Positions 1,672 through 27,958 of a stretch of DNA of 27,958 nt are shown here, in pieces; within the stretch, counting starts at the first letter, position 1; each line of letters begins with the position of its first letter. Under the pieces are notes generated by a model, which saw nothing but the letters and a program-made list of their open reading frames with translations, ran no database searches and was not told where the DNA came from. The stretch spans positions 1 through 27,958 of the forward strand of contig CAYITH010000001.1 in assembly GCA_964366295.1 (NCBI GenBank). The letters are read 5' to 3'. A program made the position numbers and the translations under genes. This DNA is from Candidatus Woesearchaeota archaeon (lineage in GTDB: Archaea > Nanobdellota > Nanobdellia > Pacearchaeales > GW2011-AR1).

Positions 1672-2886
1672 ATGAGAATAATGGCGGACTTGCAGATACA
1701 CTCGCGTTATGCGCGGGCAACGAGCAAGAACATTACTATTGAAAATCTTGAAAAATATGCGCAAATTAAGGGAATTAACATTTTAGGGACGGGCGACTTT
1801 CAGCATCCACTTTGGAATAAAGAGATTAAGGAAAAATTGAAAGAGGATGATAAGGGAATATTGCGGACTGCCGGAGGGTTTCCATTTTTATGGCAGACAG
1901 AGGTAAGTTTGATGTTCTCTCAAGGCGGAAAAAGGAGAGCAGTTCATTTATTAATTTTTGCGCCAAATGGCGAGATTGCTGACAAAATAACTGCTTTTCT
2001 TGGAAGTAAAGGCCGGCTGGATTATGACGGAAGGCCAATATTTGGAATGAGCTGCAAGTACCTGACAAATGAGCTGAAAAAGATAGATGGCCAAATAGAA
2101 ATAATTCCAGCGCATGCTTTTACTCCATGGTTCGGAATGTATGGAAGTGAGAGCGGATTTGATTCTATTGCCGAGTGTTTTGAAGAAGAAGCAAAACACA
2201 TTCACGCTATAGAAAGTGGAATGTCAGCAGATCCTGCGATGATATGGAGATTAAAAGAAAGGGTGAATATAGTTTCTTTCTCAGATGCGCATAGTTTCTG
2301 GCCTTTTAGATTAGGAAGAGAGGCAACAATATTTGAAATTCCTGAATTAAGTTATATTGAGATTATGAAGGCAATTCTAACAGGCGATGGCCTTGTTGGG
2401 ACAATTGAAACTCCGCCCGAATATGGAAAGTACCACTATGATGGGCATAGAAACTGCAATTTTTCCTGCTCGCCTGAAGAAACAAAAAAGATAAACGGAA
2501 TCTGCCCTGTTTGCAAAAAAGAATTGATTATAGGCGTTGAGAACAGAATTGACGAGATTGCTAAAGAGAAGACCGGTTTTAAGCCAGATAATGCAAAGAG
2601 TTTTTATTCTATATTGCCTTTGCAGGAGCTGATTGCGCTGGCTTATGGGATGCGAATGGAAAGCAAAAAAGGATGGGAAATTTATAATTTATTGATAGCG
2701 CAATTTGGAAATGAGTTTAATATATTGTTGAATGTTTCAAAAGAGGAACTTTTGCTAAAGAAAGTCAATAATGCTTTAGTTGATTTAATCTTGCTTGGAA
2801 GAGAAGGAAAGCTGAAAGTCAAACCGGGATTTGATGGAGAGTATGGGGTTGTGCAGATGCCGGAGAAGCAGGGGAGATTGGCGTAA
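1672..2886 (+). CDS. Endonuclease Q family protein (PHP domain plus Zn finger)
   Basis: DLQIHSRYARATSK, QTEV, PAHAFTPWFG, ESGMSADP, SDAHS, LGRE, GKYHYDGHRNC...CPVC and C-terminal PGFDGEYG. Confidence 0.88.
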   Translation: MRIMADLQIHSRYARATSKNITIENLEKYAQIKGINILGTGDFQHPLWNKEIKEKLKEDDKGILRTAGGFPFLWQTEVSLMFSQGGKRRAVHLLIFAPNGEIADKITAFLGSKGRLDYDGRPIFGMSCKYLTNELKKIDGQIEIIPAHAFTPWFGMYGSESGFDSIAECFEEEAKHIHAIESGMSADPAMIWRLKERVNIVSFSDAHSFWPFRLGREATIFEIPELSYIEIMKAILTGDGLVGTIETPPEYGKYHYDGHRNCNFSCSPEETKKINGICPVCKKELIIGVENRIDEIAKEKTGFKPDNAKSFYSILPLQELIALAYGMRMESKKGWEIYNLLIAQFGNEFNILLNVSKEELLLKKVNNALVDLILLGREGKLKVKPGFDGEYGVVQMPEKQGRLA

Positions 2887-2887
2887 A

Positions 2888-3142
2888 ATGATAAATAGGA
2901 TAATCAAATTTATCACAAAGAAGAAGAAAGAGGGTGATTGTCTATTTTGCAAGAAAAAATTTATAAGTGAAAGATATATATCCTATTATCAAGGCATAGG
3001 ATTTATCAATGTTGCAGATTGTTATTGTTCAAATAAATGTAAAATGGCAATGAGTAAAGCAATCAAAAGATGTTTTAATAGAAAATGGTTATCCAGACAA
3101 GAAAGATTAGCAGTTAATAGTTTAAGATACATTGACTTCTAA
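2888..3142 (+). CDS. Small basic hypothetical protein with a CxxC...CYCSxxC putative zinc finger (84 aa)
   Basis: ATG at 2888 lies one base after the EndoQ stop (TAA-A-ATG). Contains CLFC and CYCSNKC. AT-rich. Confidence 0.55.
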   Translation: MINRIIKFITKKKKEGDCLFCKKKFISERYISYYQGIGFINVADCYCSNKCKMAMSKAIKRCFNRKWLSRQERLAVNSLRYIDF

Positions 3143-4167
3143 CAATCAACCATCTCCTCAATCTTCTTCTTAAAAATATCAAGCGAATGAGCAGGAACTT
3201 GCGCGCCTGTTGCGTTTTCGTGGCCGCCGCCGGTTGCGCTTTCTATGCCGTTAATAGCTTTTAGAGTTATGTCGCGGGCTTTTTTTCCTCTAACAGATAT
3301 ATTCACTTTTTCACCTTTAATATAACACACTACTACAAGTGAATTAGGATATAAATATGAGAGTTCATTTGATATGTCTGCTGAAATGCTTAAATCTCCA
3401 GAGTATTCAAAAAACAAAAGATTCCCATTTATTGATGACTTTGCTTTTTCCACCAGCTTCTGGTATTTTTTGTTTATTTCTTCGTACCTTTCCAACATAT
3501 GCTCTGAGGAATTAAGTATATCATAAGGATTTTTGGCAGTGTAGAGAAATTTGAGCATCTGAATAACATTGCGAGTTTTGTCTTTCAGAGCAAAACTAAA
3601 AATTCTTGCCAGCTTGCCCATTTCAGTTTTATAAATTGCTTCTGCAGGAGTTTTCACAGAGTTCCACAACTCTGAAAAATCTTTGCAAGCTTCTGCTGAA
3701 AAGTCCGGCAAAAAATGGTCTCCGATACATCCAACTAAAGCGAGCCAATCCTCGCCTTTGTTATTAACAATTTTTGAGCAAATGTATGTAATTGGCTCGC
3801 CAAATTTTTTTACATTGTCAAATGAGTTGTAGTACGATAAGTTTTCAAACTTCTGGTTTGGCATGTTGTGATGGTCAAGCCATATAACCGGAGTTCCTTT
3901 TTCATTGAGCTCTTGAAAAAATTCAGGCTCTGCTGTAGGTTTGTCTAATATAATCGCCATATCTCCGTTATGCTCTGCAACCTTTTTTGCATAACTTTTA
4001 TTTAATCCTGGAAAAGACTTTGCAGGAATACCTACGCCGCGAAGCAACCAACGCCTTAAAAGCAGAAACGAGCATAAGCCATCAGCATCGTTGTCAAAGA
4101 AGAATATTGGGTTTTGAGAGCTTTCTAGGAATGTTCTTATTTCTGAAATCTGATGAGCAGTTAACAT
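3139..4167 (-). CDS. DHH/DHHA1 family phosphoesterase (RecJ/NrnA-like)
   Basis: DNDADG motif I, ILD motif II, WLDHH motif III and C-terminal GGGHENATG (DHHA1). Confidence 0.9.
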   Translation of the reverse strand: MLTAHQISEIRTFLESSQNPIFFFDNDADGLCSFLLLRRWLLRGVGIPAKSFPGLNKSYAKKVAEHNGDMAIILDKPTAEPEFFQELNEKGTPVIWLDHHNMPNQKFENLSYYNSFDNVKKFGEPITYICSKIVNNKGEDWLALVGCIGDHFLPDFSAEACKDFSELWNSVKTPAEAIYKTEMGKLARIFSFALKDKTRNVIQMLKFLYTAKNPYDILNSSEHMLERYEEINKKYQKLVEKAKSSINGNLLFFEYSGDLSISADISNELSYLYPNSLVVVCYIKGEKVNISVRGKKARDITLKAINGIESATGGGHENATGAQVPAHSLDIFKKKIEEMVDC

Positions 4168-10382: not shown

Positions 10383-11015
10383 ATGGAAAACATAAAAAGA
10401 TTATTTTATGATGTAGATGAAGCAGGACAATTTTTATATTCTGCAATATCTGGAATAACTAAAGGAAGAGCAGATTGCGATGTAAAATCTATCTTTTTAG
10501 ATGGCGGAGCATACAAATGGATGAAATCCCAAAATCCTTTCCCAGTTCCTTTTTTTATGAAGATAATCAATTTAGAAGCAGAAGACCAAGAAAGGGTTCT
10601 TTCAAGATTACCAAAAATTTTGCAAGAGGATCCCGAAAGAATAAGATATTATCTTAAGACTTTAATTCCATTTTTTAGATTCTCTGATTCTAAAAGATAT
10701 AACATTGTAACCGAAAAAGGATTGATGACCCAGCCCATAAATCAAATAATAACGCCTGCACAAATGGAATTGGATTCTATTGCTGGCTGGTATAATCAAG
10801 ATATACAGGAATTAGTAGATATGGATACTTATATGGCTGTCAAATTAGGAAATCATAGGAGATTTTTTCAAAGGTTCTGTCCATTCGTATTTGAAAAATT
10901 TCCCGGTTATGCACCCCTAGATAATTCTCAAAAATCACTTATTAAAAGATTTGCAGAAGGCATAATAGATTCCAACCCTATTAGTTCTAAAGAATTAACT
11001 GACTTAGTTAAATAA
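10383..11015 (+). CDS. Hypothetical protein (210 aa)
   Basis: Long AT-rich ORF preceded by AAAGGTTTATAA about 25 nt upstream. No family recognised. Confidence 0.75.
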   Translation: MENIKRLFYDVDEAGQFLYSAISGITKGRADCDVKSIFLDGGAYKWMKSQNPFPVPFFMKIINLEAEDQERVLSRLPKILQEDPERIRYYLKTLIPFFRFSDSKRYNIVTEKGLMTQPINQIITPAQMELDSIAGWYNQDIQELVDMDTYMAVKLGNHRRFFQRFCPFVFEKFPGYAPLDNSQKSLIKRFAEGIIDSNPISSKELTDLVK

Positions 11016-11093
11016 TAATGCCTTTATTATAGACTTATTTTTCAATAAAACATTTATAGAAAGCTTAATTAACATACCTGCGTTATCAATTAA

Positions 11094-11711
11094 ATGGACG
11101 CAAAAAAAGCAGTTGAACAGCTGAAATATCTTGAAAAGCTTGCTCCGAAAAATATGCGGCTGGCGGCAGAGTGGAACGAGAGATGGAAGATACTAATTTC
11201 TACAATAATGTCGTCGCAGTCGCGAGATGAGACTACAATAAAAATTGCGGAAGAGCTTTTCAAGAATTATAATGGATTAAACGAACTGGCTAATGCAAAA
11301 TATGAGAAAGTGTTAAAAATTTTGAAAAGCTTAAATTATAATAAAACCAAGGCAAGGCACATAATAGAAACTGCTGGAATATTAATTGAAAAATATGGCA
11401 AGAAAATTCCTGAAAATATCAAAGAACTGCTTGAACTGCCGGGTGTTGGAAGAAAGGTTGCTAATGTGTATCTTGTCGAGGCTTGCAACGCTGAAGCAAT
11501 TGGTGTTGACACGCATGTTGCAAGAATTTCGAGAAAACTTGGCTGGGCGAAAAGCAAAAACCCACATAAGATAGAAAAAGAACTGCAGGCGCTTTTTCCC
11601 AGAAGATACTGGAATTCTATAAATTACATTCTTGTGAGGTTTGGAAGAAGCGTCGATAGAAAAGAGGAAGATGAAGTCATTATGAAGATGAAACGAAAAA
11701 TATATAAATAA
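11094..11711 (+). CDS. nth: Endonuclease III-like HhH-GPD glycosylase lacking the C-terminal [4Fe-4S] motif
   Basis: LISTIMSSQSRD, helix-hairpin-helix LPGVGRKVAN with catalytic Lys, and VDTHVARI with catalytic Asp. Ends FGRSVDRKEEDE with no Cys cluster. Confidence 0.88.
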   Translation: MDAKKAVEQLKYLEKLAPKNMRLAAEWNERWKILISTIMSSQSRDETTIKIAEELFKNYNGLNELANAKYEKVLKILKSLNYNKTKARHIIETAGILIEKYGKKIPENIKELLELPGVGRKVANVYLVEACNAEAIGVDTHVARISRKLGWAKSKNPHKIEKELQALFPRRYWNSINYILVRFGRSVDRKEEDEVIMKMKRKIYK

Positions 11712-11800
11712 AAGCATAATATTGATTTTGTGAAAGAAGGAAATAAAAAAGCATAAAATGTATATGTTTGTTCTGAAAAGCTTAATATAACAAGACAAAG

Positions 11801-12097
11801 ATGCGCTATAATTTATTATATTTAGAAGAAACTGATTTAGAAATTCGGTTATCAATGCAGGGAGTAATGAGAGATCTTGGAATGGTTTCGAAAGTAGTCG
11901 AGATACCTATAGTTTTATATGAAGGCCGTATTCCGGCTGTTAATAAAGGAGCCATGAAAAGCTTGGAAGGAAGAGGACATATTGAAGTCAGGCCTGTTCA
12001 TAGAAACGGAACTATTTACATAGGATGTTATTTAACTAAACAAGGGGAAGAATATCTCTCCAAAAAAGAGAGAAAGTTACGGAAAGCTGTTAAGTAA
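11801..12097 (+). CDS. Small hypothetical protein, possible winged-helix fold
   Basis: MKSLEGRGHIEV...YLTKQGEEYL resembles the recognition helix/wing 'L..G.I....LT..G...L' pattern. Confidence 0.5.
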   Translation: MRYNLLYLEETDLEIRLSMQGVMRDLGMVSKVVEIPIVLYEGRIPAVNKGAMKSLEGRGHIEVRPVHRNGTIYIGCYLTKQGEEYLSKKERKLRKAVK

Positions 12098-12216
12098 ACC
12101 CTAAAACTTAACATAAAGATTAGCAGGATAATCCTTAATTCCTAAATTTTTTCTCTCCTCATTAAACCATCTAACCAAAGCATAAGCTTTTTAACTGCGT
12201 TTTTTCTCATATAGAT

Positions 12217-12372
12217 ATGGCGAAAGACAATAAAATAAATATTCCTGGAATGGGCGGGCTTGTGCGGTATGATGAGGAGCAGGATACAAGATTTCACCTT
12301 AAACCCGAGCATGTTGTTGTGCTTGTTATCGCAATAATACTTTTCTCTATCTCGTTGAGGATATTCTTCTGA
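12217..12372 (+). CDS. secG: Preprotein translocase subunit Sec61-beta (SecG), 51 aa; absent from the ORF track
   Basis: Translated by hand: MAKDNKINIPGMGGLVRYDEEQDTRFHLKPEHVVVLVIAIILFSISLRIFF. The GLVRY.EE...LKPE motif plus one C-terminal TM helix is typical, and it lies 7 nt upstream of nac. Confidence 0.9.
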   Translation: MAKDNKINIPGMGGLVRYDEEQDTRFHLKPEHVVVLVIAIILFSISLRIFF

Positions 12373-12379
12373 GGCAAAA

Positions 12380-12703
12380 ATGTTTCCAAATATAGACCCA
12401 AGAAAAATGCAGTCAATGCTTAAACAGCTTGGAATGCAGCAGGATGAAATAGAGGCAACACGCGTAATAATAGAACAAGCAGACAAGAAGATAATAATTG
12501 AAAACCCGAGTGTTGCAAGGATAAAAATGCAGGGACAGGAGAGCTGGCAGATAAGCGGAAATGCGAGGGAAGAAGAGAGCAATAATGAAGGAGATATCAA
12601 GACTGTAATGGAAAAAACAGGCAAGAGCAGAGAAGAAGCGGAAAAAGCTCTTAAGGAATCAAATGGTGATTTGGCAGAAGCAATATTGGGATTGAGCAGT
12701 TAA
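12380..12703 (+). CDS. nac: Nascent polypeptide-associated complex protein
   Basis: IDPRKMQSMLKQLGM, A.RVIIE, C-terminal UBA-like DIKTVMEKTG.SREEAEKALKESNGDLAEAILGL. Confidence 0.93.
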   Translation: MFPNIDPRKMQSMLKQLGMQQDEIEATRVIIEQADKKIIIENPSVARIKMQGQESWQISGNAREEESNNEGDIKTVMEKTGKSREEAEKALKESNGDLAEAILGLSS

Positions 12704-12713
12704 TTATTTTTAT

Positions 12714-12857
12714 TTTCAAATTGGTTTAATACCCTGCGGTCTTGCCGCAGTCAATTTGAAAAGACTAAAATTGCCGGTCGCTGAAAGCGAAAAAATTTGC
12801 GATGAATACCCTATGCTCTTGGCATAGGGATAGCAAATTTTTAGGCAATTTTTTTAT
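12714..12857 (+). mobile_element. Non-autonomous palindromic element, copy 1 (IS200/IS605-like ends, PATE/MITE-like)
   Basis: Homologous to 16058-16198 and 27876-27958. Two AATACC-preceded hairpins with TCTTG loops, a GAA mini-hairpin, and TTTAT at 12709-12713 and 12853-12857. Confidence 0.75.
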
Positions 12858-12901
12858 GCATAATTCGTATGTTTTAAAAGGCTATAAAATACAGAAAGTA
12901 A

Positions 12902-13261
12902 ATGGCAAAAGTATTATTGGTTGAAGATACTCCTGAGTGCAGAATACTAGCGGTTGCTACTTTAACACACAAAGGTCATGAAGTTATTGAAGCTAAAGAC
13001 GGAAGTGAAGGATTGGAAGCTATTGCTCAAAATCCAAAAATTGCATTAGTGGATTATAATATGCCTGTAATGGACGGATATGAATTTACAAGAGCAGTGA
13101 GAACTGATGATAAATATGCATTACAAAGAGATACTGTTTTAATAGGAATTGGCGATTTTCCAGTGAATAAAAGAGAATTCCTTACAGATAGAAGATGCTT
13201 TGAAAAGCCATGGAGTCTTAAAGAGCTAATTGAAGCTGTTAATGAATATTGTTCTGTTTAA
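12902..13261 (+). CDS. Stand-alone response regulator receiver (CheY-like)
   Basis: VLLVED acidic pair, phosphoacceptor D51 in LVDYNMPVMDGYE, and KP at 102-103. Confidence 0.88.
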   Translation: MAKVLLVEDTPECRILAVATLTHKGHEVIEAKDGSEGLEAIAQNPKIALVDYNMPVMDGYEFTRAVRTDDKYALQRDTVLIGIGDFPVNKREFLTDRRCFEKPWSLKELIEAVNEYCSV

Positions 13262-13320
13262 AATCCTACTAACCGCTATAGCATATAAATGCTTATTAAG
13301 TTAGAGCTTGATTATTATTC

Positions 13321-13800
13321 ATGGAGAAGAAATTTGAGAACTATGTTATTTCATTGGCTAGAGCAGAAAAAGCGCTTCGTGTGGGAGAGCATATAAAGCA
13401 TGTAACTTTTCCTCTGCTGAAAGATACAAAACTTCTTCTTAAGATATTAACAGAGTCTTATCTCTCAATAATGCACGCTATAAATGCAATATTGCAATAT
13501 GAGTATGCTATGAAAAGAACCAGCATAACGAGCAATGCAAGGGATAACTTGATTATATTCAGAAATAAATGCGCTGGCAGATACGGAATAAGCGAAAAAG
13601 AGTTGGGAGAGCTGAGAGAGCTTATTTTTCTTGCTGAAATGCACAAAAAAAGCCCGCTTGAGTTTACAAAACACGGCAAAATTGTTATAATGAGCGACTC
13701 CAGCCAGGTTTATACAATTGATTATGAAAACATGGCTGATTTTTTGGAATTGGCGAAAGGAATGTATGAGAAGGCAAAAGAGGGGATTAAGAGATTATAG
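13321..13800 (+). CDS. Hypothetical protein (159 aa), mostly helical, possibly HEPN-like
   Basis: Clean ORF with an upstream TATA-like site. LARAEKAL...YLSIMHAINAIL loosely resembles HEPN N-terminal helices (weak). Confidence 0.7.
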   Translation: MEKKFENYVISLARAEKALRVGEHIKHVTFPLLKDTKLLLKILTESYLSIMHAINAILQYEYAMKRTSITSNARDNLIIFRNKCAGRYGISEKELGELRELIFLAEMHKKSPLEFTKHGKIVIMSDSSQVYTIDYENMADFLELAKGMYEKAKEGIKRL

Positions 13801-13833
13801 AAAACTTTTTAATTAGAAGACCTTTGTTAAAGT

Positions 13834-14964
13834 ATGCTTAAACAATGGGCTTTTGTCCTTGTATTTGTAGAATTTTTCATTGCTTTTGCGAGTCTTTCTT
13901 ATGCGCAAAATATCTCGGTAAGCTATGACTATTCAGCAATTGCAGGAGTGAATTTCAGCTTTTCTCTGGAGCTGGTTAATTTTTCAGCGGACACTTATGA
14001 TATTAAAATAGACATAACAAACAGCACCGGCAGCAGGATAAGCCGGATTTATGACAATGGAACATGGAAATCCACTAATTTTTATATTGTTAAGGCAATA
14101 AATCTAAGTGAAGCCAGCAGAGCAAATTTCAGCTTGAATACAACTGAAGATTATACCGGAGTGGCAAATATTACCATCAAGATTAGAAACAGCCAAAATA
14201 ATAATGATATGGAAACCTTTGTTGGATATTTCTTGAATGTGACTCCAAAAACAGAAACGCAAATCAATTCCTCGCAAAACAGCACAAACCAAAGCGCACA
14301 AAATAATACTGGAACCGCGCAAACTCCAGCCAGCTCTGGCAATACTACGCAAACAACAAGCGTTATTGAGGAAAGTGAAGGCATCAGCTTAAAGTTTCCG
14401 ACTAATGTCAGCGTTAGCGAGATTTTTAATGTGACTGTAAAAATGTTTAACTTGAAAAATAAGCCTTATGATTTAAAAGTTGAGTTGAGAATTGGCGAGA
14501 CACTTGTGTCGGAAGTTTACAACGAAAGAGACAAAGAGTGGCAGTCTTCTTTCTACTACCTGCAAAATTTCACAGAGTCAAATGGAAACCAGATGAGAAA
14601 TGTCAGTTTAAGGCTAAAAAACAATGTTGTGAAGTCTGACAGAGATGCTATCTTGAGCGTTAAATTGAGAAGAAGCGGAACACAAATTTCTTCAAAGAGC
14701 GAAGATATAAAGATAACATATGCCGATAAAACAGCGGGTGAAAAATACCTCAATGAGACAACGAATGAGACAATAACTAAAATTGAGGATAATAAAATCT
14801 ACCTAAACAAAAAAGAAGAGACACAAGGTATAAAAAGTACTCCATACAGAAGCTTTAAAGAGTTTGTAAGAGAATATGCAATTTATGGATTTGCCATACT
14901 TAGCATTTTTCTTATAATAATACTGAAAGATGAGCGAGAAAATACAGGCGAGAATAATAATTGA
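13834..14964 (+). CDS. Membrane-anchored surface glycoprotein with an internal domain duplication
   Basis: Signal peptide (…ASLSYA|Q), about 20 N-x-S/T sequons, an S/T/N/Q-rich linker and a C-terminal TM helix (YAIYGFAILSIFLIIIL). Confidence 0.8.
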   Translation: MLKQWAFVLVFVEFFIAFASLSYAQNISVSYDYSAIAGVNFSFSLELVNFSADTYDIKIDITNSTGSRISRIYDNGTWKSTNFYIVKAINLSEASRANFSLNTTEDYTGVANITIKIRNSQNNNDMETFVGYFLNVTPKTETQINSSQNSTNQSAQNNTGTAQTPASSGNTTQTTSVIEESEGISLKFPTNVSVSEIFNVTVKMFNLKNKPYDLKVELRIGETLVSEVYNERDKEWQSSFYYLQNFTESNGNQMRNVSLRLKNNVVKSDRDAILSVKLRRSGTQISSKSEDIKITYADKTAGEKYLNETTNETITKIEDNKIYLNKKEETQGIKSTPYRSFKEFVREYAIYGFAILSIFLIIILKDERENTGENNN

Positions 14965-15460
14965 AATGCTTGGAAAGCCAGCAGAGCACTTAATTGAAAC
15001 AATGAAGCAGTTAATTGAGCAGTTGGGAAAAGAGCCGAATACTGCTGTTGCGGAGTATAAAATAGCCGCTCCAAAACAACTGGAAAACTCAATGTTCAGT
15101 ATATTCGGCGAAGTAAGTCTTGAAGCAAACAGCGTCAACACATTATTTTCGCTTCTTTTCAGCTATATGCCCTCACATATCGAGATATTATCCCCTGCTG
15201 AAATTAAGATGACAAATTTTCAGTTCAATGAGATTGTCAATGAACTGCAAAGAAGACTGCATAAGTATGATGAAATTGCAAAGAGAGTTTATTTTGAGAA
15301 TACTATATTAAGAAGGCAGATGGAAGAAGCAGGTATAAAGCCAGCTGTTGAAGAAATGGTGCAGAGAGCGAAAAAGGGAGAAGCTGAAAAAGAGACAGAA
15401 GAGCAAGGAAGAAAAAAGAAGAAAGGCGGAAAAAAAGGAAAGAAAAAGAAAGCGGGGTAG
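14930..15460 (+). CDS. Hypothetical protein (176 aa) with a Lys-rich tail
   Basis: Overlaps the upstream gene by 35 nt with normal composition. No function recognised. Confidence 0.75.
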   Translation: MSEKIQARIIIEMLGKPAEHLIETMKQLIEQLGKEPNTAVAEYKIAAPKQLENSMFSIFGEVSLEANSVNTLFSLLFSYMPSHIEILSPAEIKMTNFQFNEIVNELQRRLHKYDEIAKRVYFENTILRRQMEEAGIKPAVEEMVQRAKKGEAEKETEEQGRKKKKGGKKGKKKKAG

Positions 15461-15513
15461 AGATGAAGAAGAATTATAGAAAGGTTTGTATATAGATATA
15501 TACCTATATGTAT

Positions 15514-15686
15514 ATGGCAAGACTAATTAATGTTTCAGATGAAGTATATGAAAAATTGACAGGATTATTGCTGCTATATGCCTCAAAAATAATATTGAAC
15601 TACTAACATATAACCTTAAACATTCTGAAAGACTGGAGAGTTTTGGACTTATGGGTAATTCTGTTGGTTATATCAAAGGACGCTGA
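15514..15686 (+). pseudogene. Deletion-fused vapBC remnant
   Basis: 15514-15561 encode MARLINVSDEVYEKLT (VapB N-terminus). In another frame 15564-15650 encode IIAAICLKNNIELLTYNLKHSERLESFGL (PIN C-terminus). Neither is in the ORF track. Confidence 0.72.
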
Positions 15687-15721
15687 AAATTTACCAAAAA
15701 TGCGCCTTTGATAGATAGAAG

Positions 15722-15754
15722 AGGACAATAAATCCGGTAGAATATTATTGTCCT
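15722..15754. repeat. 10-bp perfect inverted repeat
   Basis: AGGACAATAA-N13-TTATTGTCCT. Confidence 0.6.
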
Positions 15755-15787
15755 TGACTATAGTATTGTTTTTTCAGAATTATACAG

Positions 15788-15834
15788 ATAGAGAATTCTG
15801 GACAAAATGTATTCTAATTACCAGAATTCTCTAT
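15788..15834. repeat. 14-bp perfect inverted repeat
   Basis: ATAGAGAATTCTGG-N19-CCAGAATTCTCTAT. Confidence 0.75.
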
Positions 15835-15854
15835 ATTTTGGCAAATTAAGTTAA

Positions 15855-16052
15855 TCATTTGTTTTTTAGCCCTCTAATAGATCTTAACTTTTCTTCTCCG
15901 TTTTGCATTCGAGCTATCTTTTTCAATGCTCTTTGCGCCATCTCAAGCTGAGAGTTTATGAATGCGGAGTGCTGTTTTTTCCAAGTCTTGTCAGTCAGGA
16001 CAAATTTTGCCCAGCGTTCTATCTGTTCTGAATGAGAGGAGTCATGCGTCAT
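15855..16052 (-). CDS. Small helical hypothetical protein (65 aa), likely partner of the nucleotidyltransferase-like gene
   Basis: SHSEQIERWAKFV..W.K.H..FINSQ. Same strand as and directly downstream of the NTase gene once the inserted element is removed. Confidence 0.7.
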   Translation of the reverse strand: MTHDSSHSEQIERWAKFVLTDKTWKKQHSAFINSQLEMAQRALKKIARMQNGEEKLRSIRGLKNK

Positions 16053-16057
16053 TTTAT

Positions 16058-16198
16058 TTCAAAATTTGGGTTTAATACCTCGCAGCTTGCTGCGAATTTT
16101 GAAAGACTGAAAATGCTGGTTGTCGAAGACAAAAAAATTTGCGATGAATACCCTACAGCTTGCTGCGGAGTTAGCAAATTTTTAAGCATTTTCTTTAT
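16058..16198 (+). mobile_element. Non-autonomous palindromic element, copy 2
   Basis: 88/89 nt identical to copy 3 over 16052-16140. TTTAT at 16053-16057 and 16194-16198. Removal rejoins the NTase stop and the next ATG. Confidence 0.8.
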
Positions 16199-16764
16199 TC
16201 TTTCATCCTTAATTTAATTATTTTATCTTTAATATTCCGAATTTCCGCTTCATTAATTTGTTCGGCGTAGATAATACGAAGGTGTTTTGCATCTTCCAAG
16301 TCTTTCTCTGACTTTAGATATTCTTCCTTAAATGCTATATTCATTTCTATGCTTGAAAACCATAAATCCAAGCCGGTAAAAGGAAGTTTTTTTCTTGTTT
16401 TTAACTGCAGTTCATCTAGAGAATCTTTTGCAAACTTGAGTTCCATTTCAGGCAAAAATTCTCCTTTTCTTATATAGCGAACACTCAATCCAGCGGACAA
16501 ATAGTCACTATAGATTTTTTCCGGCGAAGCTGACTGCATGCACTCAAAACCGGATTTTTCCAGCCAATTATGCAGCAGCACAAACCTCTCACGAGGTATC
16601 TTTTCTATTATCATGTCTATATCTTCTGTGCCGCGGCTCCTGCCGTGGGCAATTGCGACAAAACCAGAGACTATAATGTATTTGCAGTATTTTTCTACTT
16701 CTGCTGAAAAGTCTTCTGCGAATTTATCAAGTATGCTTTTGTCATCTATACTGCGTGTTGCCAT
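16195..16764 (-). CDS. Nucleotidyltransferase-superfamily protein (AbiEii/DUF6036-like)
   Basis: YIIVSGFVAIAHGRSRGTEDIDMII matches the G..A...G..R.T.D.D pattern. C-terminal KD..DA..L helix. Confidence 0.7.
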   Translation of the reverse strand: MATRSIDDKSILDKFAEDFSAEVEKYCKYIIVSGFVAIAHGRSRGTEDIDMIIEKIPRERFVLLHNWLEKSGFECMQSASPEKIYSDYLSAGLSVRYIRKGEFLPEMELKFAKDSLDELQLKTRKKLPFTGLDLWFSSIEMNIAFKEEYLKSEKDLEDAKHLRIIYAEQINEAEIRNIKDKIIKLRMKE

Positions 16765-16866
16765 GGATAAAAAAAGCAGGCAGATTATATAAATGTTAGC
16801 GCTATGGGATAGTGTATACTAATTGTCACTGCATAAATTTATATAGTTAAAAATATCTACCTTTTT

Positions 16867-17064
16867 ATGGAACAACAGAGCATCATATTGAGATTAGACA
16901 GAATAGAAGAAACCTTAAGAGAAATAAAAAATAGTATGGTAGATGTAGATGTTATTATAACTGAAGAAGAAAGAGCAATGCTTAATGAAAGTGTAAAAAA
17001 TGAAAAAGAGGGAAATCTTATTTCTTTAGAGGCGATAAAAAATGTTCGAAATAAGGTTAGATAA
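16867..17064 (+). CDS. Putative antitoxin
   Basis: 65 aa, acidic; ITEEE..ML.ES......G.LISLE pattern; overlaps a relE-like gene by 23 nt. Confidence 0.7.
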   Translation: MEQQSIILRLDRIEETLREIKNSMVDVDVIITEEERAMLNESVKNEKEGNLISLEAIKNVRNKVR

Positions 17065-17320: not shown

Positions 17321-20300
17321 CTACTCTGCCCGCGGCTTTATTATCGCTGTGCAGCTCCGCGGCGTTGGCTCGCTGCCGCTTGTGTCACGGCATCGGATAT
17401 AGAAGGTTTTATCAGTTTTCCAATCAGTGAAATGTTCTGTGCTGTTCTGGAACGGCATGTCTATGCCGTCAGCGATGTTGAAGTTGCAGTTGCTGTTTGA
17501 GTAGGCGCAAGCGCTTTTTTCGTCTGTAACCACTTTTAGGCATCCTTCTACACCACATAGGGAGACGCCTTTTTCATTGTAAAAACGGGCAATACGGGGA
17601 GCTTGCTGGTCTACCTCAAGAGTAAAAGAAGCACTTTTTGTATCTGCGTTTCCACCCAGGTCAATGCACCTTATTGTAAGATTATAAGTTCCTTGGGCGA
17701 GATTTAAGGTTTGGGAGTGCTTGTTACTGCCTGTTGTAAAAAATGGCACGAAGTCGTTCTCGTTTCCTGTTTGGGAGAAGGAACAAGAGGCATCGCCGTT
17801 TGAGGCGCCGTTAGCGGTTTCAACTGAAATTTCAATAGGCGCAACTGAAGAAAATGCCCTTATTGTTCCGTTTGGCTTTATGTCAATTATATTTAGCGTC
17901 TGCGAACCGCGAAGTGTGAAAGGGAAACTTTCTGACATAATGTTTCTGTCTTTTTCTGCTGATAGGGGCTTGTCTTTGCATCTCACAAAAAAGTTATTGT
18001 CTTTTTTGTTTTCCAAGCCGAATAGAGTAGTTTTGCAGGTGAAGACAAGATTATTATTCACTTCAGAGCCGAAAGAACTGCATTGCATTGAATTTTCCAT
18101 GAGAGAAAGGTCTTTATCTTGCCTGCTCCACTTGCATTCAGCAGGCTCATTGATGTAGAATTCTGCTTCTGTCTCGTTCAGATTAAACTGGACAAACTGG
18201 TTGTTTATTATGCTTGTGGCTTCAACTTGAGGAGGCGTTGTGTCTGGCTCCTGCTCAACGCAGAAGCGTATAGCGAACTCGTCGTCATTCACATTTCCGT
18301 TTGCGTCTTTGCATCTTGAGTATAAGGTGAAAGTGCCATCGCTTGGAACTACAACTCCTTCTGCTTCCAGTGAATCTCTCGATGGCAGTTTCATTGTTTG
18401 TGTATGGTTGTATAAGAAAAGATTTGTTTCTCCGAAAAAGAATTTCATTTCGTCAAACTTTCGCGTGTGATTAAAGTCAATCTTGCATTGCGTTGGCTCA
18501 TTTGTTGAGATGCCGAATTGAAGCGGAGTAAATGCCTTTAAGCATCCATCTTCTCTCTCAGTATTAACAATTTTCATTCCCAAGCCAGGAGGCCTTATCT
18601 TAACATCTTTGTATTCATGGTCTTTTGTTAATACATCAGCGAATGGAATTATTGTTGGAGAGTCAACATCTCGTGGATTTACCCATGCGCAGGTATCATT
18701 GCCTGTTCCACTATTAAGAAGCTGGCACGCCTGCCCTAAGCTTCTGCATCTATATTCAGAACATGGTCTAAATTTATCATTATTGCACAGTTCGCAATCT
18801 GCTCCGCCAGTGCGCGGCTCAAACGGCTTGCACTGGAAGTTTATTGTCTGCGTTGTTTCTTTGCGATACATCGCATAAAACACAGCGAAGGCAACTCCTG
18901 CTCCGATGATGCCGGAGACGAGACCTGCATTTGAATTTAAAAAGCCAACTTTACTGCCAAGCCATCCCGCTTTTCCGCCGGTTGTTCCAATCAATCCATA
19001 AGCCGCTTTTCCTGCGAAAATCCCTGCGTAGGTAGCTGCTGAAAGAGCGTTTACTGTTGTTTCATCAACTCCAAACATTCTGCCTCCTGTCTGAATAATT
19101 CCGGCGACAACACCACCCCATACTAATCCTTGAGATGCCTGCCCCAAAAATATGCCCCATGGCTTTGCCCAAAATGTTCCTTTAGTTTCAAACAAACTTA
19201 AAAATTTCTCGCCTTGGAAACCTGCCGGCGCAACGGCTACTGCGAGTGCTGGAAAGCTCTTTAATGCGTTAGGATTTTCTGCATTAAGTTCGTAGAGTTC
19301 TTCGGAAGATAAACTACTACTTTTGTCTTTGTCGTATTTGGTGAATAAATCTAATGAAGAAGATTTGAATGAACTTTGTTCAAAATCGAATTGAGTATAT
19401 TCTGTACCATCGATAAAGGATTTAGAATCGATATCCTCTTGTGTTATACCTGCAAAATTATCCTTATTAAACCCACTAATATCTGAAACTTTCACCAACC
19501 CTGTTTTTCCACTAGTTTGAGAAACATATTGAAAATATTCGTCGTCTTTTCTAATTAAAATCATACCATTTGAATTTATAGAATCTATTTTGTACTCTTT
19601 ATCTGTGATAAATTTATTTGGAATATTTATACCTTTGTTGGTAGTATAACTATCTGGACTTAGCAAAACCTCATCCTCCACTGAGAATAATTTTTTAATA
19701 AACTCTATGAAAGAACCAGCTGTTTCTGCTGCGAAAATTACCCTGCCTGTTGTTTGCTGTGAGAAGGGCGAGGCAGATGCACCTGGAGAAAAGCCGATAG
19801 GGTTTTGGCGGATACTGGAAGCGACACTTACAGAGCCAGTGCAGTCGCTTATTTGAGAGCATAAACTTGTTAATGATTGGTTAAATTCCGGCTTAAGGCA
19901 TTGTTCATTTTCTTCAACATCGCCTTTTCCGCCTTCAAAAAGTTTTTTTTCGTATTTTACAATGCACTGCGCATTGCCTAAAGCGCAAACACCTTCAGAG
20001 TCTCCCGGAGACCAAAACTGAATGCCGGGCTTGACATCGGGCAGGCAAACTCCAGTTCTTCTTATTCCTGTTGTGGTAGTGTTTCCAAAAGCTGTGAGGA
20101 ATTTGGCTTTGTCTGTTTCTACCCATCTGCAATCGCGCTTGTCAGTGTTTTCGCAATCTGATTGTTCTTCTTGGCTTGCACAATCTTGCCAGCGATTTAC
20201 ACGGCAGGCGGCTTGTGAAAAATCGCCTTGTGTTGTTGGAATAGAATCTTCAATGCATTGCTCGTTGCGAAAATCAGCGCACGATTCTAAGACTTCCTCG

Positions 20301-21421
20301 CCAGCATAACAGACATGCTTCCATTGTCTGCTTCCTGTTGTATCTTGGCCTGCGCCAGTTGCGCTGTCGTAAATGCACCAGCTTTCTCCGTGCCTGTAAT
20401 CATTTCCATCTATTGTGTCTTTGCAGTTTAAATTCCTGCAGACATTATCGCCAAAAGTTGGAGCTACTTTGTCTTTTTTTCTGTCAAAAGCAGAGCAGAT
20501 ACTTCCAGCAATATAATCGCAGTTTCCGCAGTTTGCAGGATTTGTGCCGACAGGACAGGCAGAAGCTTTTGGAACAACTTTTTTCCAGTATAGCTTATCA
20601 TTAAATTTTGAGGCTTCATAGATGTTTGCTGCATTTCCGCAAGTATCCACAAAATAGACCTCATCTTTTCCTGGAACGCAGGTTGTTTTTGTTGATGGCC
20701 CGCAGTTAGTTGCTAACTCTTCTGCACTGCATAAGAAGTCTTCATAGAAAGTGGCGTTTGAAGTTATTTTTCCTTCGCTCGCAGTTGGGTTTTTGCAGTT
20801 TGCGCGTGTTGTGAAACTGCAGGTTTTAACAAAGTCCACTTCAAAAACACAGGCGCCCTCGTCTTCATTTTCTGCTATGGCAATGCACTCTGCCTCGCTT
20901 GAAACTGATTGGCGGAAGTCTGTCTGCAGGCCAAATGAAGCCGAGAGTTTCTTGCATCTTGTCAGCGAGACAAAAGAAGCCTGCTTTCCGACAACACAGC
21001 AGCCTTTTTGGCATTGAGGAATATCGCAGTCTTTGTTATCTGCCCAAACACCCCTTGAATCAGCGCAGACTTTCTCCGGAGTTTTTTCAGAGCAAGTGCC
21101 TTCAACGCTGTCATAACAGCACCCTTGCTTGCAGAATGATGTGGCTTCGCAACTCGCTGGCGCTTGGCGGAACGAGGGATTGCAATTTGCAGAGTTGGTA
21201 TTCTGGCAGAACGCCCCAGTGAGAGTTTTTTCACAACAGGTTGTTACTTGTGGAGTTGCAGGAGTGGCTTGTGCTTTAACTGCTGGCGCTGTGGAAGAGG
21301 CAATAATAAATGCAAAAGCAAAAGTTGAAATGAAAAATGTCAGTATTTCAAATAGGGAGATTGCCTGCTTTGCCCGCAATCTTTTTGGTTTGTTCAATAT
21401 CACGCTTTTATTTTTTTTCAT
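17321..21421 (-). CDS. Giant Cys-rich surface/membrane protein A (1366 aa)
   Basis: Basic N-terminus plus QA|ISLFE hydrophobic stretch. Cys-rich region (GESWCIYD, GSRQW, DTCGN), Gly/Ala-rich hydrophobic core, then C-terminal T[ND]E..[AST].C beta-rich repeats. ATG 21421 preferred over GTG 21427. Confidence 0.9.
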   Translation of the reverse strand: MKKNKSVILNKPKRLRAKQAISLFEILTFFISTFAFAFIIASSTAPAVKAQATPATPQVTTCCEKTLTGAFCQNTNSANCNPSFRQAPASCEATSFCKQGCCYDSVEGTCSEKTPEKVCADSRGVWADNKDCDIPQCQKGCCVVGKQASFVSLTRCKKLSASFGLQTDFRQSVSSEAECIAIAENEDEGACVFEVDFVKTCSFTTRANCKNPTASEGKITSNATFYEDFLCSAEELATNCGPSTKTTCVPGKDEVYFVDTCGNAANIYEASKFNDKLYWKKVVPKASACPVGTNPANCGNCDYIAGSICSAFDRKKDKVAPTFGDNVCRNLNCKDTIDGNDYRHGESWCIYDSATGAGQDTTGSRQWKHVCYAGEEVLESCADFRNEQCIEDSIPTTQGDFSQAACRVNRWQDCASQEEQSDCENTDKRDCRWVETDKAKFLTAFGNTTTTGIRRTGVCLPDVKPGIQFWSPGDSEGVCALGNAQCIVKYEKKLFEGGKGDVEENEQCLKPEFNQSLTSLCSQISDCTGSVSVASSIRQNPIGFSPGASASPFSQQTTGRVIFAAETAGSFIEFIKKLFSVEDEVLLSPDSYTTNKGINIPNKFITDKEYKIDSINSNGMILIRKDDEYFQYVSQTSGKTGLVKVSDISGFNKDNFAGITQEDIDSKSFIDGTEYTQFDFEQSSFKSSSLDLFTKYDKDKSSSLSSEELYELNAENPNALKSFPALAVAVAPAGFQGEKFLSLFETKGTFWAKPWGIFLGQASQGLVWGGVVAGIIQTGGRMFGVDETTVNALSAATYAGIFAGKAAYGLIGTTGGKAGWLGSKVGFLNSNAGLVSGIIGAGVAFAVFYAMYRKETTQTINFQCKPFEPRTGGADCELCNNDKFRPCSEYRCRSLGQACQLLNSGTGNDTCAWVNPRDVDSPTIIPFADVLTKDHEYKDVKIRPPGLGMKIVNTEREDGCLKAFTPLQFGISTNEPTQCKIDFNHTRKFDEMKFFFGETNLFLYNHTQTMKLPSRDSLEAEGVVVPSDGTFTLYSRCKDANGNVNDDEFAIRFCVEQEPDTTPPQVEATSIINNQFVQFNLNETEAEFYINEPAECKWSRQDKDLSLMENSMQCSSFGSEVNNNLVFTCKTTLFGLENKKDNNFFVRCKDKPLSAEKDRNIMSESFPFTLRGSQTLNIIDIKPNGTIRAFSSVAPIEISVETANGASNGDASCSFSQTGNENDFVPFFTTGSNKHSQTLNLAQGTYNLTIRCIDLGGNADTKSASFTLEVDQQAPRIARFYNEKGVSLCGVEGCLKVVTDEKSACAYSNSNCNFNIADGIDMPFQNSTEHFTDWKTDKTFYIRCRDTSGSEPTPRSCTAIIKPRAE

Positions 21422-21911
21422 TTGCACTCCTGAAATTAAAGGTTTCTGGACTTCCTTGTGATAGTGTGGAGATATACTGGTTATTTGGGGCTAATAGTAT
21501 TGGCATTAGTTGGGAGTTATTTAAGACAGGTGATAATGCTAAAACATACGGGTTATGGTAATTAGGGGTTTTATAAATGGGGATAGAGTTTATTGGTGGG
21601 AGTGGATTATCTAAAACAGATGATAATGCCCAAACATACTTTTCATCTAAACAAAGAAGTTTAAGAGGATTATTTTTGCAGAAACTGAAGGTTTCTGAAC
21701 TTCCATTTGAAGATAGGGATAGTGCCCAAACATAAGGATTATGTAATTTAATTCCACTAAATAATGGGTAGGAAGATAAATGGTTAATAGGAGATATATC
21801 GCCTAACATGACAGATGAGGCGGATAATGGAAAGGCAAATTGCGAGAAAGTAAAGTTATCTCTAAGCATCATGCGTTCTATTCTATTGTTTTCTGAAACT
21901 AAATTTATCAT
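21408..21911 (-). CDS. Hypothetical repeat-containing protein (167 aa)
   Basis: A stop-free frame fills the gap between the pilin-like gene (stop 21913) and giant gene A. Contains YV[WL]ALS three times and [SP]ETF twice. Confidence 0.5.
   Translation of the reverse strand: MINLVSENNRIERMMLRDNFTFSQFAFPLSASSVMLGDISPINHLSSYPLFSGIKLHNPYVWALSLSSNGSSETFSFCKNNPLKLLCLDEKYVWALSSVLDNPLPPINSIPIYKTPNYHNPYVLALSPVLNNSQLMPILLAPNNQYISTLSQGSPETFNFRSANEKK
21517..21733. repeat. Three degenerate direct repeats at 90/96-nt spacing
   Basis: GATAATGCTAAAACATA (21532), GATAATGCCCAAACATA (21622), GATAGTGCCCAAACATA (21718). Confidence 0.65.
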
Positions 21912-24081: not shown

Positions 24082-27000
24082 TTAATACACCTTCGCCTTG
24101 GCGATGCATGAACTTGGCTCGTTGTTCCAGATGTCACGGCATTTTATGTAGTATGTAAATTCAGAGTCTGCTGAAGTTGTATGTTCTATGGAAAGACCAG
24201 ACATTTTTGTGCCATTGGCAAAGTTGAAATTGCAGACACTTGTTGAAAAGGCGCATTCTGAATTTTCATCTGTTGAAATGTAAAGAGCGCTTCCACTTTG
24301 ATAGATTCTTGTTAGTTTTGGCGGAGTTGTGTCAAGCTCTATGGTGAATTGCGTTGAACGCTCAGCGGTGTTGCCTGCTGTGTCTGTGCATTTAACTGCG
24401 ACATTATGAGTTCCTCGGAAAAGGCTTAGACTGCCTTGCGTGTGAGTTGTTCCAGCTGTGGTGAAAAATGAGGCGAATAGCAAATTATTAAGTTTGTATT
24501 CGCAGAGCGCGTTGCCGTTGTCAATTCCGCCTGTTGTTGCTGCGCTGATTGTGACAGTAATTGGCTCTATGCCGTTGACTATTTTGCTTCCATCTGCGGG
24601 AGTGAGAGAGGTAATGTTAAGTATAGATTGAGTTCTTGTTAAGTCATATTTCTGGCTTTGCGTGTTTGCATTTCTCTTTGTCGCGTCTGTTTCCCACGGC
24701 ATATCAAGACAGCGGAAATAAACCGCGTTTTTGTCTCTTAACCCTGTTAAAACTCCCTCGCATCTGAAGCCGAAAATTGTTTGGTCTGCAAGAGATTGGT
24801 GGCATTGCATTGAGTTTTCCATTTCTCCGAAGGATTTGTCTGTTAGACTCCAACGGCAATCTGAAGGCTCGTTTGTGTGCATTTGAATGTTCATCTGTTC
24901 GGAATTAAAGGCAAGTTTTCCAACAGCTGGAGAGAAAGATTTTATTAATGGCGCTGTGCGGTCTGGCTCTGGATTGATGCATGCTTTTATTGAGTATTCG
25001 TTTGTGTTTACATTATTATTTGGGTCTTTGCAACGGACAAAGAATCTTAAATCCTGCACTTGCCTCTGGATTTCGCTTATTCCTGTTTCTGTTTCATGGG
25101 CGAGCGATTCAAGACTTGGAAGTGAGAGTTTAATAGTATGCTCTTTTCCCAAAATTCCTGTGTCAAAATCAATTTCCATTTCCTCAAAAGTGTCTTTGTG
25201 CTCTGTGTCTGCTAAGCATTGCGATGGCTCGTTTGTTTTTACGCCGAGCGTGAAGTCTGTGAATGGGTTAAGGCATTTTTCTATTTCATAGCCGTTTTCA
25301 ATAGTTTTTATCTGCACGCCTGAAGAAACTAATGGAGAAATTACAGGAGGAGATACATCATTAGGGCTAATGTCAACACACTCTTCTTTTCCTGTGCCTT
25401 CATTTATAAGGCGGCATGTTTGGCCAAGAGACTGGCAACGATAAGGCGAGCAAGTTTTGAAGCCTTTTATGAGAGAGCTGTCAGTGCATTTCGAACATTG
25501 CGAACCGCCTGGAGCGGGAAGCCATGCATTGCAAGTAAATGAGACAGTGCGTTCTTTTGTTTCACCGACACCGACAAGTTTCAGTATGCCTGCGAAGACT
25601 GCTACTAATGCTACAACTATTAAGGCTGCGGGGCCGAATGATATTGCTAAGGGTGCGTTGCTACCTACGGCTGCAAATCCTGCACTTACTCCACCTGCTG
25701 CTCCTACTACTCCACCAAAAACTAAAACAGCAGTAGATGCATCTCCTTGTAAGCCGAAGAGTTTTATGAAAATTGTTGCGGACAACATTCCTATAGCAAA
25801 AACTGCGGCTCCATTTGCATAAGCTCCGAGACTAGTGCCTAAAGTAGTGGGTAAAAAAGAGGGGGCAATTTCAGCAGTACCGGCTAATGTTCCTTTTAAA
25901 AGTGCAAAAACGGCTGAAAGACTTTTTCCAGCTATTGCGGCTGCGACAACAGAAGTACCTGCTAATCCTATCGCAGCCATGCTCATTGAATCAACGATAT
26001 CTGAATTAGAGAGGTCAGCTTGGCCTGTGTTTGGATTTGTGGGAAGGCCCATTGCTAAAAGAGTTTCATTTAAACTTTGGGCTTGAATAAATTTATTTTT
26101 TTCTGGAATAGCATCTTCTCTATAATCTGCAATTTCGTCTGCGCTCAAGTCTTGGAAACCCCAGCCAGCAATGCGGTAGTTTTTCTCAAACTTGCCGAGA
26201 ATGTTTGCTTTTCCACCGCAGTCGCCTAACGAGGTGCAAACTTTATTCATCTCTGTTGCGAGGCGAGCCATGCAGCCGCAATTTGCTTTGCATTTCCATT
26301 TTCCTAAAATGCTTTTTTGATAGGTCATCTTGCAGGTTGTTGTGGCTTGAGAGCATTGGGTGTCTGCAACACTTGCGAATTCTGGAGTTGAGGTGTCAAA
26401 GCCAGGCGGATACTTAGGAAGGCATAAAGTGAATTTGTAAGGCGGGATGTCATCGTCTGGGTGTCCGCTGTCAATGAGTGTATTGCGTATATAACAATCA
26501 GAGATTTTATCGCAATCATCTTTAAACTCATCTAATACTCCTGGAGAAGTCATATATCGGTTTTGAAACTGGGAATTGACATTAAAACATTCCTGCCAGC
26601 GATTAATACGGCATGAAGCTGATGAAACTTTTTTACCGGCGCCTACCTCTGCATCTGACTGGACGCAAATTTGTTGGCGGTAATCAGAACAACCTTCTGT
26701 AAGAACCTCGCCGTCAATACAGCTGCGGCGCCAGTGCCTGCTGCCTACTACATCTTCTCCATCGCCTAACTTGCTGTCATAAACGCACCATGATTCTCCA
26801 TTTTTTCTTTTTTTTCCGGCCTCATCAACACATTCTGTTGAAATGCATTGCGCTTCGCCAGAAGTTTCTGAACAACGACTGCTTAAAAAATGGTCACAAT
26901 TTCCGCAAGTTTTGCCAATGTTTAGCTGGCTAGGATTGCACGACTGTGCTGGTGACAAGACTCGACCGTTATTCCAACTTTGAAGAGTATTAGAACTGAA

Positions 27001-27783: not shown

Positions 27784-27875
27784 GTTAGATAAACTGAAAA
27801 TCGATTTAATTGAAAATCTAAAGACAATAGATAATGTGAAGGCATACTTGATATTATATGGGGTAAAGTTTTTAT

Positions 27876-27958
27876 TTCAAAATTTGGGTTTAATACCCCG
27901 CAGCTTGCTGCGAATTTTGAAAGACTGAAAATGCTGGTTGTCGAAGACAAAAAAATTT
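27876..27958 (+). mobile_element. Non-autonomous palindromic element, copy 3 (cut by the window end)
   Basis: Near-identical to copy 2, with TTTAT at 27871-27875. Confidence 0.75.

Follow-up and report, generated by a model that had tools for sequence, protein, structure and literature searches.

A probable non-autonomous IS200/IS605-type element with a covarying branched fold, repeated in the genome of a Pacearchaeota-like archaeon

Introduction

The palindrome-associated transposable elements (PATEs) of Haloquadratum walsbyi, of which HqIRS46 is an example, are devoid of genes and possess neither terminal inverted repeats nor a target duplication (Dyall-Smith et al. 2011, PMC3119063). The repeat analyzed here resembles them in its insertion beside a short conserved oligonucleotide, in palindromes near its termini which resemble each other as well as the palindromes of IS200/IS605 elements, and in the occurrence of single-hairpin "terminal-only" forms generated by deletion between the palindromes (PMC3119063). 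Such deletion forms measure 64 nt in one carrier genome (G017) and ~125 nt in the genome under study. The repeat differs from the Haloquadratum PATEs in its DPANN host with a genome of less than 1 Mb, in its length of only 144 nt and in its tnpA-only IS200 partner. It further possesses four covarying accessory stems in a branched fold of two domains, and no such feature was found reported for the Haloquadratum PATEs in PMC3119063.

Autonomous elements such as IS608 of Helicobacter pylori and ISDra2 of Deinococcus radiodurans share with the repeat a Y1 HUH transposase, subterminal hairpins on one strand, a 4-nt guide that complements the cleavage tetranucleotide, and a fixed target of 4–5 nt that is not duplicated. 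In IS608, the guide lies 5' of each hairpin (AAAG at the left end) and base-pairs with the cleavage tetranucleotide TTAC (PMC3201880). Unlike the repeat, these elements are autonomous, have differing left and right guides and cleavage sites and lack conserved long-range stems, whereas the repeat employs the left-end-type guide AATA and the cut site TTAT at both of its ends. The REP/BIME sequences of enterobacteria and pseudomonads, which are associated with RAYT, are likewise high-copy extragenic hairpins accompanied by a single Y1 transposase gene; however, the transposase in the present case is not of the RAYT type, the hairpins are direct and the borders are those of a defined transposon. 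Pneumococcal BOX elements are also modular, with a left module, optional middle inserts and a right module, and have a strong predicted fold like that of the repeat. To our knowledge no transposase has been linked to BOX elements, whereas the repeat shares its end motifs with an IS200 of the same genome.

Here, we present a computational analysis of this repeat, three copies of which lie in a stretch of 27,958 nucleotides that was analyzed as a whole (the window). The repeat most likely constitutes a new family within the known class of IS200/IS605-derived PATEs, and not a new RNA.

Element anatomy and borders

Copy 1 of the repeat is 144 nt long, too short for protein coding, belongs to subfamily A and scores 155.9 bits with the covariance model described below. 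It sits between an archaeal NAC gene (stop codon at 12701–12703) and a response-regulator gene (start at 12902), both neighbours being assigned by Pfam. The features of the three copies are as follows.

12709–12713, + strand: TTTAT target and putative left cleavage site, outside the element; TTTAT flanks 31 of ~40 left ends
12714–12857, + strand: copy 1, subfamily A
12713–12762, + strand: left module, in which P1 (12713–12723 with 12752–12762) encloses the GGTTTAATACC bulge and hairpin P2, as seen in the MFE folds
12728–12731, + strand: AATA guide-like tetranucleotide within the conserved AATACC 5' of P2; part of the invariant TTAATAC
12734–12750, + strand: P2, predicted left-end-type TnpA hairpin (CTGCGG, loop TCTTG, CCGCAG), from the fold and the match to the IS end
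12763–12766, + strand: conserved unpaired linker (A)GACT between the modules, the site of a ~70-nt insert in other copies
12767–12852, + strand: right module, in which P3 (12767–12775 with 12844–12852) closes a three-way junction
12778–12790, + strand: P4 with GAA triloop, a branch of the P3 junction, from the fold and the alignment
12791–12800 with 12833–12842, + strand: P5, a branch of the P3 junction that carries P6, from the fold and the alignment
12805–12808, + strand: AATA guide-like tetranucleotide immediately 5' of P6, from the alignment and the IS608 rule
12809–12829, + strand: P6, second predicted left-end-type TnpA hairpin (CCCTATGC, loop TCTTG, GCATAGGG), from the fold and the match to the IS end
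12853–12857, + strand: terminal TTTAT of the element and putative right cleavage site; the boundary falls after 12857
16058–16198, + strand: copy 2, subfamily B, 166.6 bits, with a TTTAT flank at 16053–16057
27876–27958, + strand: copy 3, subfamily B, 90.9 bits, 3'-truncated by the end of the window, with a TTTAT flank at 27871–27875

The AATA tetranucleotide abuts the foot of the hairpin directly at P6, as it does in the left end of the IS, while a CC dinucleotide intervenes at P2. Between P5 and P6 lies an internal loop, GATGAATA.

Comparison of the copies places both borders sharply. On the left, the number of flanks rises from the 31 with TTTAT to 36 when any base is accepted at the first position (xTTAT). 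On the right, the element itself finishes in TTTAT at ~41 of 44 ends and the downstream sequence diverges at once; outside the borders, the sequence is unrelated from copy to copy. A target-site duplication was considered and rejected: six complete copies carry GTTAT, ATTAT, TTGTT, TTAAT or TTTGT on the left and nevertheless TTTAT at the right end, so that the variant left pentamers find no mirror on the right. Terminal inverted repeats are absent as well: the left end (TTTCAAATTGG...), when inverted, does not yield the right end (...GGCAATTTTTTTAT).

The other two copies lie close to minus-strand reading frames. The last bases of copy 2 contain the stop codon of a minus-strand ORF (16195–16764), and the minus strand would read GAA TAA A ATG if 16058–16198 were removed. 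Copy 3 lies 93 nt upstream of a minus-strand gene of 1233 aa. As a separate observation, paralogous giant ORFs of 1368 and 1233 aa occupy 17321–21427 and 24082–27783 of the window on the minus strand, with only a weak, sub-threshold match to Big_13. Just upstream of copy 2, positions 15668–15840 hold two other short repeat families, each with hairpins of its own, one of ~95 nt that is present at least 20 times in the genome and the other of ~75 nt with ~8 copies; contig depth over this segment is 25–170 against a background of ~5.

Fold and covariation

A first-pass annotation of the window had described a branched structure of six stems, preserved by compensatory changes between diverged copies. 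All six stems are present in the minimum free energy folds of copy 1, both as RNA (-53.2 kcal/mol, z = -5.09, with none of 200 shuffles as good) and as DNA (-42.2 kcal/mol, z = -9.65). Copies 2 and 3 form the same stems from different stem sequences, and the stem sequences that had been quoted for copy 1 versus copies 2/3 are correct, as is the remark that P6 is imperfect in copy 2, which its fold displays. The remark on fixed elements also holds: across the alignments, little or no variation affects TTAATAC, the CTTG loops or the GAA triloop, nor the terminal TTTAT.

Compensatory change was assessed on two alignments. RNAalifold, applied to a structure-blind MAFFT alignment of 13 copies, returned 51 pairs, 22 of them changed on both sides, and found besides the six stems a 4-bp GGGT/ACCC helix inside the left bulge. 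A covariance model was built from the 13-copy alignment, and 34 distinct copies from seven genomes were aligned to it. Among these, 95.6% of pairing cells are paired against 81.1% after shuffling and 41–56% with partners slid by 1–3 columns; compensatory change affects 42 of the 51 pairs against a shuffled mean of 22.1; and the covariation score of 0.380 (0.149 shuffled) was matched by none of 500 shuffles. These values are to be read with the alignment being model-fitted and the copies being related, so that they amount to ~10 independent subfamilies. Resolved by stem, compensatory pairs number 9 of 10 in P1, all 5 of those modelled in P2, 7 of 9 in P3, 5 of 5 in P4 and 8 of 10 in P5, and several pairs display three to five different Watson-Crick types. 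Stems P1, P3, P4 and P5 are thus kept by compensatory change across genomes, which bears out the maintenance of the fold that had been claimed from the three copies of the window.

The accompanying proposal that selection acts on the + strand holds in part. The asymmetric AATACC-hairpin modules of the + strand match the coding strand of tnpA, and G.T pairs outnumber A.C pairs in the stems (57 vs 25), but the two strands fold alike: as single-stranded DNA, copy 1 reaches -42.2 kcal/mol on the + strand and -40.8 kcal/mol on the opposite strand. Strand assignment by folding energy was accordingly rejected as uninformative.

Transposase and guide sequences

The genome holds one intact tnpA, located on contig C48 (2101–2544, 147 aa) inside an IS200-like element of 559 bp. 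Its product scores 129 bits on the IS200/IS605 transposase model NF033573 (cut-off 55), and its best PDB match is the TnpA of ISDra2 (9e-19), with the HUH motif and the tyrosine aligned. Read on the coding strand, the left end of this IS comprises TTTAT, 8 nt, AATA and then the hairpin CCCCGCAG-CTTG-CTGTGGGG, while its right end comprises GATG, the hairpin CCCCAGAG-CTTG-CTCTGGGG and then AGGTTCAC. Relatives of tnpA in ~20 other genomes are organized in the same manner, with TTTAT, 8–20 nt, AATACC and a CTTG-loop hairpin upstream, and GATG/GATA, CC, a hairpin and then GGAGGTTCAC/T downstream. In the vicinity of the transposase, at C48 3363–4284 (L031 ~2727–3648), we also noted an ORF that ends in a helix-turn-helix which by eye resembles bacterial sigma-70 region 4 (GLTGERTRQIEERAY), a motif that is unexpected in an archaeon.

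At P2 and at P6 of the repeat, AATACC leads into a hairpin with a CTTG loop, an arrangement that is also seen in the left ends of the C48 IS and of ~20 relatives and that lies on the tnpA strand; in subfamily B, a single base separates P6 from the left-end hairpin of the IS200 in this genome. We therefore predict that P2 and P6 are left-end-type TnpA hairpins. In complexity, the repeat exceeds the plain end hairpins of autonomous IS200 copies, a point that the first-pass annotation had made for the right half. The autonomous IS is without P1, P3, P4, P5, the AGACT linker and the GAA triloop. It moreover has a TTCAC terminus and a GATG guide, whereas the repeat carries a left-end-type hairpin and TTTAT at both ends; the repeat is not a simple deletion derivative of the autonomous IS.

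The pairing of guide and cleavage site known from IS608 can be followed in the autonomous relatives, where the terminus can be predicted from the 4 nt that precede the right-end hairpin (GATG with TCAC in 18 cases, GATA with TCAT in 10 and AATG with TTAC in 4). The rule holds at 32 of 34 right ends, with two exceptions. In the repeat, AATA precedes both hairpins and TTAT stands at both putative cut sites, the two being complementary at every position. Such complementarity at both ends would explain the presence of the target sequence at the element's own terminus, and would likewise account for the head-to-tail copies and for the IS found behind a right end on C48. A divergent single copy in another genome (L206, G059) hints at a guide changed together with the termini, but was left out of account because its borders are uncertain.

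Among other carriers of the repeat, G017 and G041 possess tnpA of another IS200 type (multi-copy in G041), with the terminus GATGTCACA, and no tnpA was found in the carrier genome G043. This second type, with three copies in G041 and one in G017, has GCTTTAGC-loop hairpins in addition to that terminus, and its ends are unlike those of the repeat family. Because of this second type, and because 37 of the order's 151 genomes contain tnpA in any case, the co-occurrence of tnpA and repeat is only suggestive.

Copies and genomic distribution

The host genome comprises 725 kb in 102 contigs at 36% GC and is ~80% complete; archaeal NAC and aEF-1alpha genes are present. The host is Pacearchaeota-like (DPANN), and the nearest relatives of its transposase occur in Pacearchaeota/Nanoarchaeota MAGs. 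The sequencing runs that contain the locus derive from groundwater, with no RNA run among them. In the genome, ~40 left ends and ~45 right ends were counted, both ends lying on one contig for 26 elements, and many copies are located at contig ends, where the assembly breaks. Two subfamilies dominate, namely B and A, the latter comprising copy 1 and four near-identical others; C is represented by one copy. Beyond this genome, related subfamilies were encountered in no fewer than six further small genomes of archaea, the highest number of BLAST matches in any one of them being 41, while among 150 other sampled genomes of the order the covariance-model search recovered the element in only 3. The distribution is patchy but copy-rich, as for mobile DNA, some carriers having dozens of copies, and on groundwater contigs the depth at the element is 10–60 times the background.

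The element is presumably mobile, judging by near-identical copies at unrelated sites and by tandems. Copies sharing one common TTTAT stand in tandem on C7 (3751/3752) and on C49, and on C48 the IS itself lies directly behind the right end of a repeat copy. Searches for an empty site returned none on the contigs of four groundwater runs over 11000–17000, where just breaks and cross-copy joins were seen; every contig that encodes the identical NAC protein ends inside the element, and the 189-aa protein flanking copy 2, sought for the same reason, is not on record. Circle junctions were not seen either in these contigs, which come from four runs and four assemblies and all break at the element.

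For the 26 two-ended elements, the orientation was compared with that of the neighbouring genes on a crude ORF map. The upstream gene points the same way as the element in 11 cases and the opposite way in 14; for the downstream gene, the corresponding numbers are 10 and 15. Element orientation is thus unrelated to neighbouring genes, in agreement with the earlier statement that the fold is independent of flanking gene direction.

Proposed mechanism and role of the accessory fold

Taken together, the observed anatomy and borders of the repeat, its copy number, its agreement with the IS ends, the complementarity of guide and cleavage site and the covariation make it quite probable that we are dealing with a non-autonomous element of the IS200/IS605 type (a PATE, or hairpin MITE), which the TnpA encoded on C48 most likely moves in trans. 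By analogy with IS608 and ISDra2, on which each biochemical step is modelled, P2 and P6 would fold when the + ("top") strand becomes single-stranded, each being bound by one subunit of a TnpA dimer. The AATA 5' of each hairpin would pair with TTAT, located in the left flank in one case and forming the 3' terminus of the element in the other. TnpA would then cut 3' of both TTAT sites, reseal the donor with one TTTAT and release a single-stranded circle, which would insert, in one fixed orientation and with no duplication of the target, on the 3' side of another TTTAT. As the element ends in its own target, new copies or the IS could land directly behind an existing copy and give rise to head-to-tail tandems.

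Hairpins, guides and cut sites suffice for the known mechanism, which can do without the accessory stems P1, P3, P4 and P5. With P1 and P3/P5 formed, each cleavage site is placed ~10 bp or more, about a helical turn, from its guide, and these stems would therefore have to open for cleavage. Our best guess, held with low confidence, is that the accessory stems keep the top strand compact and thereby favour hairpin formation or stabilise the excised single strand, in which event selection among element lineages for transposability may maintain them. It is conceivable, albeit rather unlikely, that the accessory fold (P1, the P3/P4/P5 junction, the AGACT linker and the GAA triloop) is itself the functional module, either as a single-stranded DNA scaffold that times TnpA cutting or as an RNA made from a left-end promoter; if so, it would represent a layer of structure-based regulation undescribed for IS200/IS605 elements.

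The predicted TnpA hairpins present a different picture from the accessory stems. In subfamily B, P2/P6 are 88–92% paired against 98–99% for P3–P5. Between otherwise near-identical copies of this subfamily, 17 of 35 P2/P6 columns vary compared with 6 of 102 elsewhere (including 16080–16094 and 16148–16168 of the window), the changes being mostly G>A and C>T and many of them breaking pairs. That P2/P6 are the most variable and least paired parts is the reverse of simple selection for TnpA binding, and may reflect GC-to-AT pressure or damage to extruded hairpins.

Alternative explanations

The strong covariation of stems that the transposase mechanism does not need could also be read as the mark of a structured RNA, with the whole element or its right three-way junction serving as a small RNA or as a cis-acting mRNA element (terminator, stabiliser or processing site). 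Transcription would perhaps start from the TATA-like TTTAATA of the left module, and the covariation would then indicate an RNA function, possibly besides mobility. The excess of G.T over A.C pairs (57 to 25) agrees with such a function; CUUG is a stable RNA tetraloop, T-rich 3' ends could terminate archaeal transcription, and the conserved GGGTTTAATACC resembles an archaeal TATA box, as judged by eye. Against it, the element shows no preferred orientation relative to neighbouring genes, the two strands do not differ in how well they fold, and sharp transposon-like borders together with tandems explain the spread without an RNA role. The C-GAA-G hairpin, which P4 has in most subfamilies, is a classic hyperstable DNA mini-hairpin and a DNA-stable rather than RNA-stable motif; its presence favours, but does not prove, a single-stranded-DNA role over an RNA role. 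Nor does the structure belong to a known Rfam family: the window gave no match at the gathering score and, with E-values up to 10 admitted, nothing credible, the best sub-threshold hits reaching at most 17.7 bits with E-values of 5.6 or worse. We consequently regard an RNA function as improbable. A C/D-box snoRNA was rejected, the Rfam matches being weak and the internal loops fitting, by eye, neither kink-turn nor C/D motifs.

A more specific RNA proposal would see in the right module, which is multi-stemmed and ends exactly at the right border, an orphan omega-RNA scaffold of a TnpB/IscB nuclease whose guide would come from the flanking sequence past TTTAT; omega-RNA modules are common among PATEs (PMC10055086). 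However, the TnpB zinc-ribbon PF07282 gave nothing significant in this genome (~80% complete), the RuvC model PF01385 had no hit in this genome or in four other carriers (80–90% complete) while control genomes were positive, Rfam offered no omega-RNA-like match, and the autonomous partner is a tnpA-only IS200 of 559 bp. As no TnpB-type gene was found, an orphan omega-RNA is very unlikely. The ratio of one tnpA to ~45 repeats, and the flanking of tnpA by repeat copies on C48, would in turn suit a domesticated REP/RAYT-like system, with the one tyrosine transposase acting as a gene of the host that keeps the repeats in place for some cellular role. Yet TnpA attains only 24.9 bits on the REP-associated model NF047646 (cut-off 80) compared with 129 bits on the IS200 model, tnpA has IS200-type left and right ends of its own, the hairpins are direct and not inverted (the CTTG loop lies on the + strand in both), there is no GTAG-type REP head, and the database hits of TnpA suggest a place inside mobile IS200 clades with multi-copy relatives; domestication of this kind thus carries scarcely any probability.

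Relative to this spread of readings, a non-autonomous IS200/IS605-type element is the interpretation that we prefer. As to whether an already described element had been encountered, the repeat falls into the IS200/IS605-derived PATEs (PMC3119063), but it corresponds to no named family and to no Rfam model. Such an element accounts for a structured repeat that stands out in a streamlined DPANN genome, of which it occupies ~1%, and that splits the assembly into ~100 contigs, and it extends PATE-type elements, including hairpin-targeting parasites and deletion forms, to Pacearchaeota-like archaea. The point of note is that, in several genomes, compensatory change has preserved four stems outside the hairpins predicted to bind the transposase; the accessory fold is a genuine embellishment of a known class, for which the known mechanism has no need. 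If these stems modulate single-strand transposition, a 144-nt element and a 147-aa transposase would together offer a very small testable system for control by DNA folding.

Modular variation within the family

The repeat family is a mosaic of modules. Where PATEs have SMR-A, small repeats with inverted ends, inside their near-terminal palindromes (PMC3119063), the repeat has a 57-nt insert. This unit, which has 17-bp inverted ends, occurs 25 times in the genome (for example, outside the window, in L005, C7:2247–5395, at ~1209–1265) and always at a constant position, namely after AATACCCC within the 5' arm of either P2 or P6; no other site in the genome has it. In several subfamily B copies (C19, C22, C28, C76, C95 and C48; e.g. 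L219), a two-hairpin insert of ~70 nt replaces the GACT linker, and one subfamily A copy bears a different insert of ~68 nt at the same place. Three copies, on C2, C21 and C86 (L116:1501–1646, minus strand), show the hairpin loop CAAG in place of CTTG with the arms intact, a loop inversion as is expected from strand switching within a hairpin.
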